A program made the position numbers and the translations under genes. Positions 17,618 through 19,280 of a stretch of 64,000 nt of DNA are shown in pieces (within the stretch, counting starts at the first letter, position 1; each line of letters begins with the position of its first letter). The notes beneath the pieces were generated by a model, which searched no databases, had not been told where the DNA came from, and was given only the letters and a program-made list of their open reading frames with translations. The stretch is taken from positions 6,191 to 70,190 of IMG/VR virus record IMGVR_UViG_2703718833_000007. One strand, written 5' to 3'. This DNA is from a virus (Duplodnaviria > Heunggongvirae > Uroviricota > Caudoviricetes).

Positions 17618-17818
17618 ATGTTCGAAAGAATACGGGAGGCGTGTGCGTATGTGGCTGGTGCAGTAACCGCTTTTTTCGGCGCGATAACCATCAATGACGT
17701 TGCCGTCTTTGTGGGTATCTTATCAACCATTGGCACATTTGCCGTTAACTATTACTTCAAATCACAGGAGAACAAGAGGGCGCAAGAGGAACACGACGCA
17801 CGAATGGGGAATAAGTAA
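17618..17818 (+). CDS. Holin (pinholin-like, two TM segments)
   Basis: Track ORF 66 aa; GGAGG SD; two hydrophobic helices and charged C-terminus; first gene of lysis cassette. Confidence 0.7.
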   Translation: MFERIREACAYVAGAVTAFFGAITINDVAVFVGILSTIGTFAVNYYFKSQENKRAQEEHDARMGNK

Positions 17819-17819
17819 C

Positions 17820-18311
17820 ATGATTAGCCAATCGCTGAAAAACCGACTAACTAAGGCGGCGGCTGGTGGAACGTTAGCCATTGCATCTGTTTTGCTTGTA
17901 TGGGTTGAGGGTACGGCTTACGAGCCTTATTACGATACCGGAGGCGTGCTAACTGTATGCAATGGCATAACCGGCCATGATGTTGTCCCTGGTAAGAGAT
18001 ATACACCGGATGAATGCGAGAGACTTTTGCAAAAGCATTTAACCGTTCACAAAAAGGCGGTTGATCGTTATGTAAAAGTTGACATGAATGATTATCAACG
18101 CGCAGCGCTAATTAGCTTTTCATACAATATCGGGGTTGACGCTTTCAAAAAATCAACCTTGTTAAAAAAAATAAACAAAGGCGACTTTAAGGGAGCGTGT
18201 AAGGAGATGGATCGCTGGGTGTATGACAATGGGAGATATATACAAGGCTTAAAGAATCGTCGCGATATTGAACGTGCTATATGTGAATGGGGCGTAACCA
18301 ATGGAAAGTGA
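17820..18311 (+). CDS. SAR endolysin (lysozyme with N-terminal signal-anchor-release domain)
   Basis: Track ORF 17694-18311 trimmed to MISQSLKN; hydrophobic Gly/Ala-rich N-terminus then lysozyme core resembling remembered phage 21 R. Confidence 0.8.
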   Translation: MISQSLKNRLTKAAAGGTLAIASVLLVWVEGTAYEPYYDTGGVLTVCNGITGHDVVPGKRYTPDECERLLQKHLTVHKKAVDRYVKVDMNDYQRAALISFSYNIGVDAFKKSTLLKKINKGDFKGACKEMDRWVYDNGRYIQGLKNRRDIERAICEWGVTNGK

Positions 18312-18822
18312 TGATGAACTAAAACGAAAGCTACACTACGATCCAGCGACAGGTATTTTCACCTATAAGATTAGTCCTCACGGGAGAATCAAGGCCGGAA
18401 GCGTAGCCGGGTGTAAGCATAAAAGCGGATACATACACATAGGAAGATATAAAGCGCATCGCCTTGCGTGGTTTTTCCATTATGGAGTGTGGCCCGAAAA
18501 GGACATTGACCATATTAATGGAATAAAAACCGACAACAGGATAGTAAACCTGCGAGAAACAGATGATGCGCATAACTGCAGAAACAAGAAACATATTGCC
18601 ACTCACACATTGTCTGCATTCAGGGGTGTTAGCTACCACAAAACAGAGAGAAGCAAGCCTAAATGGCGAGTAAGAATTACCGACAATGAAGGTAAGCGTA
18701 TATCTATTGGTTTATTTGACTCACTAGACGAAGCGATCGCCGCTCGCATTTTGGCGGAAAACTTTTTCTATGGTGAATATGCACCTTCGATGGGTTGCGA
18801 GGGTGAAACATGGACAAGGTGA
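18301..18822 (+). CDS. HNH homing endonuclease (HNH_3 + AP2-like), paralogue 2 of 4, inserted between endolysin and Rz
   Basis: Track ORF 173 aa; KDIDHINGIKTDNRIVNL HNH core; FRGVSYHK...KWRVRI AP2-like region. Confidence 0.85.
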   Translation: MESDDELKRKLHYDPATGIFTYKISPHGRIKAGSVAGCKHKSGYIHIGRYKAHRLAWFFHYGVWPEKDIDHINGIKTDNRIVNLRETDDAHNCRNKKHIATHTLSAFRGVSYHKTERSKPKWRVRITDNEGKRISIGLFDSLDEAIAARILAENFFYGEYAPSMGCEGETWTR

Positions 18823-19280
18823 AGACGTTAATCATCGCCGCTGTTGTTTGCATCATTGCCGGGCTTGCTGCCGTAACGTGCTATTACCAGGGTGAAACGG
18901 CAAGGTTGCAGGAAGAAGTCACGGTGACGAAAGGCGCGCTAAAAACAGCAAGTAACACTATTCAGCAGATGAAGGAGCGAAACGCAGAACTGTCAAAACT
19001 TGATAAGAGGTATCACGATGAGATTAAAGCTATCAGATCTGACATTGCCGATCTGCGCACTGGCATTGATAACGGCACTATCAGGCTGCGCGTCAACGCA
19101 ATACCAGTGCGAGTGTCCGACTCCACCGGAACCGCCAGCCGCATTGATGGAGCCTCCTGTAGACTCACTCCCGACGCTGAATCGGCTTATCTATCCCTCA
19201 GAGAACAACTAAAAGAGAAAGATGCGAAGATAACCGCGCTTCAGGGCTACATCAAAACGCAGTGCTTACGCAAAGAATAA
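18810..19280 (+). CDS. Rz-like i-spanin
   Basis: Track ORF 156 aa; N-terminal TM anchor, coiled-coil periplasmic domain. Confidence 0.75.
   Translation: MDKVKTLIIAAVVCIIAGLAAVTCYYQGETARLQEEVTVTKGALKTASNTIQQMKERNAELSKLDKRYHDEIKAIRSDIADLRTGIDNGTIRLRVNAIPVRVSDSTGTASRIDGASCRLTPDAESAYLSLREQLKEKDAKITALQGYIKTQCLRKE
19018..19212 (+). CDS. Rz1-like o-spanin lipoprotein (embedded in Rz in +1 frame)
   Basis: Track ORF 19000-19212 trimmed to MRLKLSDLTLPICALALITALSGC (lipobox LSGC), Pro-rich mature part; AAGAGG SD. Confidence 0.7.
   Translation: MRLKLSDLTLPICALALITALSGCASTQYQCECPTPPEPPAALMEPPVDSLPTLNRLIYPSENN

Follow-up and report, generated by a model that had tools for sequence, protein, structure and literature searches.

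The locus analysed here raises the question of how a gene encoding an HNH endonuclease can come to stand between the endolysin and the spanin genes of a phage lysis cassette. The window (the whole stretch of DNA that was analysed, with a length of 64,000 nucleotides) carries a set of genes for cell bursting that is ordinary in kind; a selfish HNH gene and a foreign version of the endolysin have entered it, and the cassette is unbroken. We consider it likely that the region is the late lysis cassette of an mEp021-like temperate coliphage (mEpimmI group), present here as a prophage, that its genes bring about lysis as proposed below and that the HNH gene was inserted by a homing-type process. 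The genes are of known kinds, to which the locus adds a further member, and the same HNH protein is also encoded on a 258-kb contig of assembly GCA_001575935.1. The features of the locus are the following:

17575..17593, + strand: terminator-like element (G+C-rich stem-loop, then a T run) found by pattern scan 24 nt 5' of the holin start, putative in function
17618..17818, + strand: class II holin of 66 aa, HP1 holin family (PF16080, 54.9 bits; phrog_20, holin)
17820..18311, + strand: predicted SAR endolysin of 163 aa, GH24 lysozyme of the phage 21 R type (PF00959, 140 bits; PDB 3HDE/3HDF and 4ZPU)
17885..18794, + strand: replacement module of 910 bp, comprising the endolysin body (allele R-B) and the HNH gene, delimited by blastn breaks against HNH-less relatives
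18301..18822, + strand: free-standing HNH endonuclease of 173 aa with HNH_3 and a candidate AP2-like DNA-binding domain, putative homing endonuclease (PF13392, 52 bits; phrog_99)
18799..18822, + strand: relic of the 3' end of the resident (mEp021-type) endolysin gene, codons E-G-E-T-W-T-R and stop, from junction alignments
18810..19280, + strand: i-spanin Rz of 156 aa (PF03245, 85.7 bits; phrog_13 end to end; hydropathy)
19018..19212, + strand: o-spanin Rz1 of 64 aa, embedded in Rz in the +1 frame (PF06085, 35.3 bits against a cut-off of 27.9; phrog_3198)

The five open reading frames listed in the initial annotation were all found where it had placed them, and the Pfam families of the five genes (PF16080, PF00959, PF13392, PF03245 and PF06085) all exceed their curated cut-offs, which excludes chance matches; the PHROGs assignments agree with Pfam for the cassette genes. 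No Rfam family was found across positions 16500-20500, and the NCBIfam models gave no match for the holin, the HNH protein or Rz1. In the cassette of mEp021 and the mEpimmI phages (mEp021_46-48; MH706966, PP180001-5) the holin, Rz, Rz1, the gene order, the upstream terminator and the flanks are orthologous to those of the window, with 90-95% nucleotide identity, and the holins of mEp010/mEp013 show 97% amino acid identity to that of the window. A terminator is annotated at the equivalent position in mEp021 and mEp010. The mEp021-type phages differ from the window in having no HNH gene at this place, another allele of the endolysin body (54% amino acid identity) and an endolysin gene that overlaps Rz directly. 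Neither the lysis genes nor the HNH gene are mentioned in the paper on the mEpimmI genomes, and the cassette genes are mostly labelled 'hypothetical' in mEpimmI-type records.

The holin gene has a single ATG start, with GGAGG 7 nt upstream, and the hydropathy of its product gives two hydrophobic stretches side by side, TMD1 at approximately residues 8-25 and TMD2 at approximately residues 28-47, with a charged tail at the C-terminus; two TMDs are also annotated for the mEp021 orthologue (TMHMM, Phobius). The PF16080 profile (Phage_holin_2_3) aligns with residues 5-55 over positions 3-53 of its 56 positions, well above the cut-off of 28.8 bits. The initial annotation had called this protein a pinholin: its class II character and its membership of the HP1 holin family speak for that name, whereas its score for the P21 S family (PF04971) is 22.2 bits, under the cut-off of 26, with an alignment limited to TMD2 and the start of the tail, and the dual-start antiholin motif is absent (there is no in-frame upstream start after the preceding stop, and the first Met beyond the start codon is residue 63). 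SAR endolysins also work with large-hole holins, for example in P1, and it is conceivable, if somewhat unlikely, that the protein is a conventional large-hole class II holin in a P1-like pairing with the SAR endolysin, serving mainly as a timer. Besides the low P21 S score and the missing antiholin, this alternative would account for the lack of similarity between the holin and the T1 pinholin, and the topology predictions for the HP1 holin are themselves ambiguous (PMC7312051). Against it, the threshold of the HP1 family is passed and the HP1 holin acts as a pinholin experimentally, killing cells without releasing beta-galactosidase (PMC7312051); TMD1, with 56% Gly/Ala/Ser/Thr, is marginally hydrophobic and resembles the releasable TMD1 of S21; the sister holins of the HNH-carrying Morganella and Yersinia cassettes exceed the thresholds of both families, HP1 and P21 S; and depolarisation alone would be enough to activate the partner endolysin. 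A pinholin is a plausible assignment for the holin of the window.

Two known systems frame this assignment. With phage 21 the window shares a holin with two predicted TMDs and the same Pfam name series (Phage_holin_2_x), an embedded spanin and an endolysin that is homologous including the SAR segment, with a Gly-Gly-containing hydrophobic stretch and an E-D-T triad; it differs in the holin score below the P21 S threshold, in the single start codon and in an endolysin that is six residues shorter in the stretch from the SAR segment to the catalytic Glu. We know of no endonuclease gene in the lysis cassette of phage 21. With the hol/lys genes of Haemophilus phage HP1 (PMC7312051) it shares a PF16080 holin and the pairing of a small class II holin with a SAR muramidase, although HP1 is a P2-like myovirus of a distant host with low sequence identity. 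Among the matches listed in a tblastn search with the holin were HP1-family holins of Pasteurella and Mannheimia phages (34-41%), HP1 itself being absent from these.

The gene that sets this cassette apart is the one between the endolysin and the spanins. The claim that an HNH gene splits R from Rz/Rz1 proved correct, since empty-site relatives prove the insertion. The HNH-less comparison set consisted of mEp021, mEp010, 35 complete E. coli genomes and 37 IMG/VR contigs, with seven phage records. Similarity in blastn to four HNH-less loci stops at 17884 and restarts at 18795, and it is unbroken across the HNH-carrying loci. Inside the module no nucleotide similarity to mEp021-type genomes could be detected, whereas the flanks are 90-95% identical, and the R-B endolysin, as given above, shares little more than half of its residues with mEp021 R. 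There are approximately 20 loci with the R-B allele (L011-L013, which are the window's own genome contig and two metagenome contigs, together with L005-L010, L014 and L063-L073), and the HNH gene is present in every one. A tree of 10 endolysin sequences separated the alleles of HNH-carrying and HNH-less phages in 300 of 300 bootstraps. As judged from these comparisons, the HNH gene and a different allele of the endolysin catalytic body arrived together, and a simple insertion is not enough to explain the locus. We also considered the stricter proposition that this endolysin clade is exclusive to HNH-carrying phages, and dropped it because the endolysin of an HNH-less prophage (L079) falls inside the clade once database relatives are added to the tree; the T1 and KMI8 endolysins are outgroups.

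The last seven HNH codons and the stop, which form the C-terminus of the HNH reading frame, are the relic of the resident endolysin gene, and this relic overlaps the start of Rz in exactly the way that the endolysin gene of HNH-less phages overlaps it; because the HNH 3' end is the endolysin relic, the native overlap of 13 nt with Rz persists. The HNH protein of one R-B locus (L005) ends in CEWGETWTR*, the same as the endolysin tail of the HNH-less locus L003. Such relics are not confined to coliphages: one is present in Salmonella P0007, the Salmonella HNH tail aligning with residues 139-160 of mEp021 R (14 of 22 identities, E=4e-8), and a relic of the endolysin tail is also found in the Morganella lineage, where Morganella/Providencia phages provide an independent empty-site proof. 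A megablast search of the phage collection with the relic and downstream flank of the Salmonella locus L017 gave no informative HNH-less relative, whereas the equivalent search for Morganella did yield one. The sequence TGYGARTGGGG at both ends of the insert had prompted the idea of a target-site duplication, which was rejected because the Gly-Cys before the right copy is part of 'APSxGC', a conserved C-terminus that the HNH protein has in common with its homologues from other phages; the relic comprises only the codons past this Gly-Cys. Two points had escaped the initial annotation, namely the co-arriving endolysin allele and the in-frame fusion of the HNH gene to the relic tail of the original endolysin.

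The HNH gene itself overlaps both of its neighbours, at its ATG the endolysin stop (11 nt) and at its stop the Rz ATG (13 nt). The residues D70-H71-I72-N73-G74, N79, N83 and N92 of the HNH motif are invariant in 14 homologues, and a profile of the family matches I-HmuI (1U3E) with E=2e-7. The AP2 domain scores 23.2 bits when the single HNH protein is the query, below the cut-off of 33.3; the family profile matches the AP2 domain of plant WRI1 (7WQ5) with E=2.7e-6, and PF00847 is present in many HNH homologues. I-HmuI-like enzymes nick DNA and do not cut both strands. A search of IMG/VR with the HNH protein gave no match. The protein had been described as HNH paralogue 2, and the window indeed contains four HNH_3 reading frames, at 10142-10669, 18301-18822, 25053-25604 and, on the minus strand, 34988-35509. 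The values of dN/dS for the HNH gene (0.07-0.14), with the catalytic motif intact, indicate that it is under purifying selection.

The most likely mechanism of its arrival would be that the HNH protein introduces a nick or a cut near the 3' end of the endolysin gene in a co-resident related phage that carries the HNH-less allele, and that repair off the HNH-carrying genome copies the HNH gene together with the neighbouring, presumably uncleavable, endolysin allele. The HNH frame would then continue through what is left of the displaced endolysin gene, its last seven codons and its stop. The stop/start overlap by which translation is coupled into Rz would thereby survive in its original form, and the insertion would accordingly be nearly neutral for lysis. 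The left junction of the module exists in three different versions among the loci, as is expected for conversion tracts of variable length.

The same block of endolysin body and HNH gene could instead have been exchanged by ordinary mosaic recombination, the HNH gene not being an active homing element here but a neutral passenger or a gene with some other task, for example attacking the DNA of competing phages with no self-propagation involved, or aiding DNA packaging. The rarity of the module would agree with this: it is absent from the 37 IMG/VR loci, the 35 complete E. coli genomes and the seven phage records of the HNH-less sets, and it was not found in 5,426 complete E. coli genomes, so that, with none among the 37 IMG/VR relatives and none among the 5,426 genomes, it is unlike an efficiently spreading element. 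Synonymous divergence of the HNH gene is also two to three times that of the adjacent endolysin gene when the same genomes are compared, and the histories of the two genes may therefore differ; one HNH copy (L074) carries a frameshift, prophage L079 has an endolysin of the same clade but no HNH gene, and the terminase genes lie approximately 2 kb downstream of the HNH gene. Nevertheless, we regard this explanation as improbable. The strong purifying selection on the HNH gene and its intact motif speak against it, the linkage to one site is perfect in five phage backgrounds and down to 59% protein identity, and the relics of the resident endolysin tail are lineage-specific, as break-and-repair insertion into the endolysin gene would leave them, besides the variable left junctions. 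A packaging-associated HNH, as a distinct candidate, was rejected: the relatives package their DNA without it (the gene is missing from mEp021 and the 37 relatives), and the protein is of another domain type, HNH_3/AP2 with three paralogues elsewhere in the prophage and not the small terminase-associated HNH type. In locus L018 a separate PF01844 HNH adjoins the terminase.

Returning to insertion by homing, the order holin-lysozyme-HNH-spanin is also found in unrelated Salmonella, Morganella and Yersinia prophages. In Morganella phage IME1369_02 (KY653119) and in these prophages, the HNH protein is 59-61% identical to that of the window and occupies the same position after an R21-type endolysin. 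It likewise ends in a relic of the resident endolysin tail, and the endolysin body is unlike that of the HNH-less sisters, with a shared SAR-coding 5' end. The backbones, terminases and spanin types (DUF2570) of these loci are unrelated to those of the window, and a stem-loop spacer of 90-150 nt separates endolysin and HNH genes, in contrast to the 11-nt overlap in the window. Tentatively, and as one reading to be taken whole, we propose that this HNH/AP2 clade may be a homing lineage specialised on the 3' ends of R21-type SAR-endolysin genes, which may have invaded unrelated enterobacterial temperate phages independently, among them mEpimmI coliphages, Hendrixvirinae-like Morganella phages and Salmonella and Yersinia prophages. 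The HNH gene may move together with a cleavage-resistant endolysin catalytic body through recombination within the conserved SAR-coding 5' end, and each invasion may end in frame on the stump of the resident endolysin, preserving the translational coupling of the spanins. If this were true, the endolysin would be a chimera whose catalytic half was picked by a selfish element and not by the phage.

Comparable arrangements are known from the T-even phages, in which SegB and MobE take part in 'intronless homing', and from I-HmuI of SPO1: there too an endonuclease gene lies between or beside essential genes, is polymorphic and is inherited together with flanking markers (PMC2790892, PMC2330249, PMC10448857). 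The HNH core of I-HmuI is similar to that of the window's protein, which differs from these endonucleases in being HNH_3 plus AP2 and not GIY-YIG, and whose cleavage and homing activities are putative. Phages Shivani and phiR201 carry a homing gene of the GIY-YIG type between their spanin genes (PMC6139136). In the homing-endonuclease literature that was searched we found no description of an in-frame fusion of a homing gene to a relic of its target gene. For phage evolution, the locus offers a clean natural case of a putative homing gene within an essential, translationally coupled and unbroken operon, for which two lineages provide empty sites. That the HNH gene drags along an alternative allele of its neighbour fits the published view that homing endonuclease genes mark the limits of genetic exchange among phages (PMC10448857). 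Current understanding of lysis and of homing is unchanged by the result.

The endolysin that was carried along is, on the evidence of homology and composition, supported as a membrane-tethered SAR endolysin of the phage 21 R type. The program-called reading frame opens at 17694, and the real start was placed at the ATG at 17820 because the 163-aa mEp021 orthologues match it. The hydrophobic string that had been quoted as evidence for a SAR domain (AAAGGTLAIASVLLVWV) corresponds to a segment at residues 13-29 (nt 17856-17906), preceded by the basic residues K7, R9 and K12. Searches against R21 (3HDE, 3HDF) and RrrD (4ZPU) gave E values from approximately 1e-43 to 1e-40 with the SAR segment within the alignment. 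In the comparison with phage 21 R the full-length membrane-tethered form, 3HDE, aligns at E=1e-43 from residue 5 onwards, and the match therefore takes in the SAR segment. The catalytic triad Glu30-Asp40-Thr46 is conserved and aligns with the triad region of R21 and RrrD. The segment is R21-like both in its Gly/Ala/Ser/Thr content (53%) and in its hydrophobicity, with a summed Hessa insertion energy of approximately +0.5 kcal/mol (R21, +0.26; true TMD of Rz, -1.0); the SAR claim of the initial annotation is thereby borne out. A regulatory Cys in the SAR segment separates the disulfide-caged type of P1 Lyz from the R21 type, and Cys is absent from residues 1-45 of the endolysin, the first being C47, directly after the triad Thr. 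That the N-terminus is instead a cleavable Sec signal peptide of a constitutively secreted enzyme with no SAR anchor, as its n-region/h-region layout (K7, R9 and K12, then 17 hydrophobic or small residues) might suggest, is very improbable indeed, given that no small-x-small cleavage motif follows the hydrophobic segment, which leads directly into V-W-V-E30 with E30 the catalytic Glu, that the segment matches the uncleaved SAR domain of 3HDE residue for residue and that constitutive secretion of an active lysozyme would undo the timing by the holin. Recognising the endolysin as a membrane-tethered SAR enzyme is relevant to anyone expressing it.

By homology with phage 21, HP1 and lambda, the class II holin would build up in the inner membrane and cause a timed depolarisation, probably through small 'pinholes'. 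The endolysin would meanwhile be exported by Sec, and its weakly hydrophobic N-terminal SAR segment would keep it tethered to the membrane in an inactive form; upon depolarisation it would be freed from the membrane, refold and degrade the murein. The outer membrane would then be disrupted by the Rz/Rz1 spanin complex.

The spanin genes are predicted from their sequences to be an embedded two-component spanin of the lambda Rz/Rz1 type. Rz has an N-terminal TMD at residues 6-26, a coiled-coil periplasmic domain and two periplasmic cysteines (Cys117 and Cys152). The offset between the two starts (19018-18810 = 208 = 3x69+1) places Rz1 in the +1 frame and entirely within Rz, and its coordinates and the PF06085 match confirm the embedded o-spanin with lipobox LSGC that had been read from the sequence. 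The lipobox L-S-G-C is at residues 21-24 and fits [LVI][ASTVI][GAS]C, leaving a mature Rz1 of 41 aa with 9 Pro and 3 Cys. For the annotation of this phage group, gene starts are now fixed and the embedded Rz1, previously unannotated, is added; its conservation is 79-97% in 37 related viral contigs. Rz1 covers the interval from 0.44 to 0.85 of the length of Rz, and by comparison with a survey in which approximately 70% of embedded o-spanins start at 0.4-0.5 and end at 0.9-1.0 of the i-spanin (PMC6139136), its start is typical and its end slightly early.

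The lysis cassette of the window comprises five genes on one strand, between positions 17618 and 19280, as read from the open reading frame list and the sequence:

17618-17818, holin, 66 aa; GGAGG 7 nt 5' of the start, no alternative in-frame start
17820-18311, endolysin, 163 aa; ATG at 17820 set by the starts of orthologues, the mechanical frame running from 17694
18301-18822, HNH endonuclease, 173 aa; overlaps both adjoining genes
18810-19280, Rz (i-spanin), 156 aa
19018-19212, Rz1 (o-spanin), 64 aa; +1 frame relative to Rz, wholly within it

Pfam placed the holin in PF16080 (HP1 holin family, 54.9 bits), the endolysin in PF00959 (phage lysozyme, 140 bits), the HNH protein in PF13392 (HNH_3, 52 bits, with a weak AP2 match), Rz in PF03245 (85.7 bits) and Rz1 in PF06085 (35.3 bits), and the PHROGs assignments were concordant (holin, endolysin, HNH endonuclease and two Rz-like spanins). 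The gene content and layout of the initial annotation were thus borne out in every detail by the reading frames, the sequence and both databases. The cassette itself belongs to well-known kinds, and only the build of the insertion goes beyond routine: an endolysin body of foreign origin is linked to it, and an in-frame relic of the resident endolysin keeps the coupling to Rz. On either side of the cassette the sequence has 90-95% identity to the mEp021/mEp010 group, which are temperate coliphages of non-lambdoid type; prophages of 35 complete E. coli genomes match to the same degree, and collinearity with mEp021 spans window positions 254 to about 43100. Assembly GCA_001575935.1 encodes an identical HNH protein on a contig of 258 kb, and the window is therefore a prophage. 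Holin, endolysin, spanin and HNH genes all go unmentioned in the paper describing the mEp021/mEp010 group (PMC11893012).

Four relatives, mEp021, mEp010 and two prophages of E. coli, lack the HNH gene, and their endolysin gene shares 13 nt with Rz. At the nucleotide level the window ceases to resemble these empty-site relatives at 17884 and resembles them again from 18795, so that the insertion of the HNH gene between the endolysin and Rz/Rz1, as originally proposed, holds. In this interval 910 bp of the window stand in place of 397 bp of mEp021, and the replaced stretch includes, besides the HNH gene, the endolysin from about codon 22 on, this part having 54% protein identity to the mEp021 enzyme. 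On sequence comparison the HNH gene is an insertion accompanied by a foreign endolysin body. Loci carrying the HNH gene are collinear with the window through the entire cassette (82-88% identity), and the HNH gene was present in all of about 20 loci whose endolysin is either the allele of the window (96% identity or more) or its relative at 73% identity. The module was found in none of 5,426 complete E. coli genomes; in 37 mEp021-like IMG/VR contigs an endolysin of mEp021 type adjoined Rz, with no HNH gene at the site in any, and a search of the phage collection likewise yielded neither the module nor an HNH gene at this site. The left end of the module varies by locus: in the window it follows codon 8 of the endolysin, in the HNH-carrying locus L014 it lies at conserved AAAGG codons, and in two others, L005 and L007, it is left of the holin. 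Such differing ends would arise through repeated recombination or conversion in tracts that vary in length.

The right end of the module retains a trace of the displaced gene. The HNH-less endolysin ends in C-E-W-G-E-(K/T)-W-T-R-stop, its final 13 nt overlapping the start of Rz, and the HNH protein of the window ends in A-P-S-M-G-C-E-G-E-T-W-T-R-stop with likewise a 13-nt overlap; in L005 the HNH C-terminus (G-C-E-W-G-E-T-W-T-R) is identical to the endolysin tail of the HNH-less locus L003. Generic members of the HNH family end at about APSxG, the extra C-terminal residues occurring only in the endolysin-associated clade, so that the HNH frame has been fused to the final seven or eight codons of the endolysin gene that was displaced, and uses its stop. 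This fusion left the upstream context of Rz intact. The window's own endolysin, unlike the HNH-less allele, ends in C-E-W-G-V-T-N-G-K-stop, an end with which the start of the HNH gene shares 11 nt. The repeated TGYGARTGGGG was considered as a target-site duplication and rejected, as Gly-Cys is part of the conserved HNH C-terminus.

The same anatomy recurs in several phage lineages. The nearest HNH homologues outside E. coli (59-61% identity) belong to Salmonella, Morganella and Yersinia prophages with terminases and spanin types different from those of the window, in which a class II holin and an R21-type lysozyme are followed directly by the HNH gene and then by the spanin; Morganella phage IME1369_02 has the same order, its HNH gene being annotated as a homing endonuclease. 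The C-terminal 22 residues of the Salmonella HNH protein match residues 139-160 of the mEp021 endolysin (14/22 identities, E=4e-8). Morganella provides a second lineage with an empty site: the endolysins of HNH-less IME1369_01 and Providencia PSTRCR_117lys end in EKAVCHGTP/L-stop, exactly the HNH tail of their HNH-carrying relatives, and nucleotide identity between phages with and without the gene runs from that tail into the downstream genes. Between the two kinds of endolysin in this lineage identity is 82-89% in the SAR-coding N-terminus and about 50% in the catalytic body. A small tree of catalytic bodies separated HNH-linked from HNH-less alleles in 300/300 bootstraps; when it was enlarged with database relatives, T1-like endolysins being outgroups, the endolysin of a lambdoid prophage without the HNH gene (L079) grouped within the HNH-linked clade, which therefore also occurs without the endonuclease. 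The 11-nt endolysin-HNH overlap of the E. coli clade contrasts with a 90-150-nt spacer in the Salmonella, Morganella and Yersinia cassettes (L017, L018 and L020), where G+C-rich inverted repeats and T runs may represent a terminator or expression signals of the endonuclease.

The DHING...N...N motif is invariant in 14 homologues, the family profile matches I-HmuI (1U3E) at E=2e-7 and the DNA-binding AP2 domain of a plant protein (7WQ5) at E=2.7e-6, and dN/dS among orthologues at this site (0.07-0.14) is as low as that of the endolysin. We infer that the HNH protein is active as a nuclease and cuts at specific sites. Its target, judging from the intronless homing of T-even phages (PMC2790892, PMC2330249) and from the location of nuclease genes at exchange boundaries (PMC10448857), would be the HNH-less endolysin allele, probably near the 3' end, and the gene would have been copied in along with its linked endolysin body. 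Both the rarity of the module and the synonymous divergence of the HNH gene, which is two- to threefold that of the neighbouring endolysin, count against efficient homing. A GIY-YIG gene separates the spanin genes in phages Shivani and phiR201 (PMC6139136), and a homing endonuclease gene within a lysis cassette is thus not new in itself. An orthologue at the same site in L074 (GCA_017073795.1, 1838-2360) is frameshifted by one extra T in a T run, either through decay or through a homopolymer assembly error; only its C-terminal 119 aa are called, under the misnomer 'Fis family transcriptional regulator'.

The proposal of a SAR endolysin was upheld by homology, catalytic residues, composition and insertion energy. 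With E values of about 1e-43 the protein aligns with phage 21 R (R21; 3HDE, full-length and inactive) and RrrD (4ZPU), the alignment beginning at residue 5 and so including the SAR segment, and Glu30, Asp40 and Thr46 fill the triad positions. Residues 13-29 (AAAGGTLAIASVLLVWV) are 53% Gly/Ala/Ser/Thr, with three basic residues N-terminal to them, and their summed membrane-insertion energy (about +0.5 kcal/mol) is near that of the R21 segment (+0.26) and unlike that of the genuine Rz TMD (-1.0). The segment lacks Cys and is hence of R21 rather than P1 Lyz type; no signal-peptidase motif follows it, and it leads straight into the catalytic Glu. Assignment as a SAR enzyme, which is predicted to be released from the membrane, is well supported by homology.

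The term pinholin proved plausible and unproven. In the holin two hydrophobic stretches lie side by side and the tail is charged; 56% of TMD1 (residues 8-25) are small residues, and the protein exceeds the HP1-family threshold. The holin of HP1 is lethal to E. coli but causes neither lysis nor leakage of beta-galactosidase, and HP1 release requires it (PMC7312051). Against this reading, the phage 21 S score (22.2 bits) is below the cut-off of 26 and the gene has no dual start; similarity to the T1 pinholin was not detected. Holins of the sister Morganella and Yersinia cassettes exceed both thresholds, so the HP1 and phage 21 S families grade into one another, and we favour a pinholin as the likelier reading, with some reserve.

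For the spanins, the embedding of Rz1 in Rz in the +1 frame and its LSGC lipobox were confirmed by coordinates, sequence and PF06085. In Rz a TMD lies at the N-terminus and two cysteines, Cys117 and Cys152, are periplasmic; the consensus lipobox of Rz1 precedes a mature part of 41 aa, of which 9 are Pro and 3 are Cys. Rz1 is 79-97% conserved among 37 related viral contigs and occupies 0.44-0.85 of the Rz length; about 70% of surveyed embedded o-spanins start at 0.4-0.5 and end at 0.9-1.0 of the i-spanin (PMC6139136), so that its start is within the usual range and its end slightly early.

A strong terminator-like hairpin (17575-17593; 7 pairs, 6 of them G-C, then a T run) lies 24 nt 5' of the holin ATG and about 2 kb downstream of a Q-like late regulator gene; it is conserved in mEp021 and mEp010, whose records annotate a terminator at the equivalent position, and could be a site of late antitermination. 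An Rfam scan of 16500-20500 matched no families. At the holin-endolysin junction (17816-17822 and equivalents) otherwise near-identical loci differ by one base, TAAC-ATG or TAA-ATG, which alters the spacing from holin stop to endolysin start. Rz is followed by a 280-bp non-coding gap (19281-19560), within which the alignment with mEp021 is interrupted (19431/19436 against mEp021 25636/25699, mEp021 being about 60 bp longer) near the annotated mEp021 terminator at 25715-25747, and then by a conserved 194-aa frame (19561-20145), an orthologue of mEp021_49 of unknown function with an Ala/Glu/Lys-rich C-terminal tail.

Polymorphic HNH genes seem to be unusually numerous in the mEp021-like group. 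Three further HNH_3 paralogues are present in the window (phmmer E 1e-16 to 1e-18): one at 10142-10669 (+) in the place of mEp021_33, a cytosine methyltransferase gene; one at 25053-25604 (+), where about 480 bp are cleanly inserted between the equivalents of mEp021_53 (head morphogenesis) and mEp021_54; and one at 34988-35509 (-), within a segment after the tape-measure gene that is replaced relative to mEp021. The HNH gene mEp021_78, between tail genes I and J, is cleanly missing from the window at 39631/39646. The interval from lysis to terminase genes may be a second insertion hotspot; in the HNH-less mEp021-like contig L054 (IMGVR_UViG_2585427779_000013) a different HNH gene (34% identity) lies downstream of Rz, at 3683-4171.
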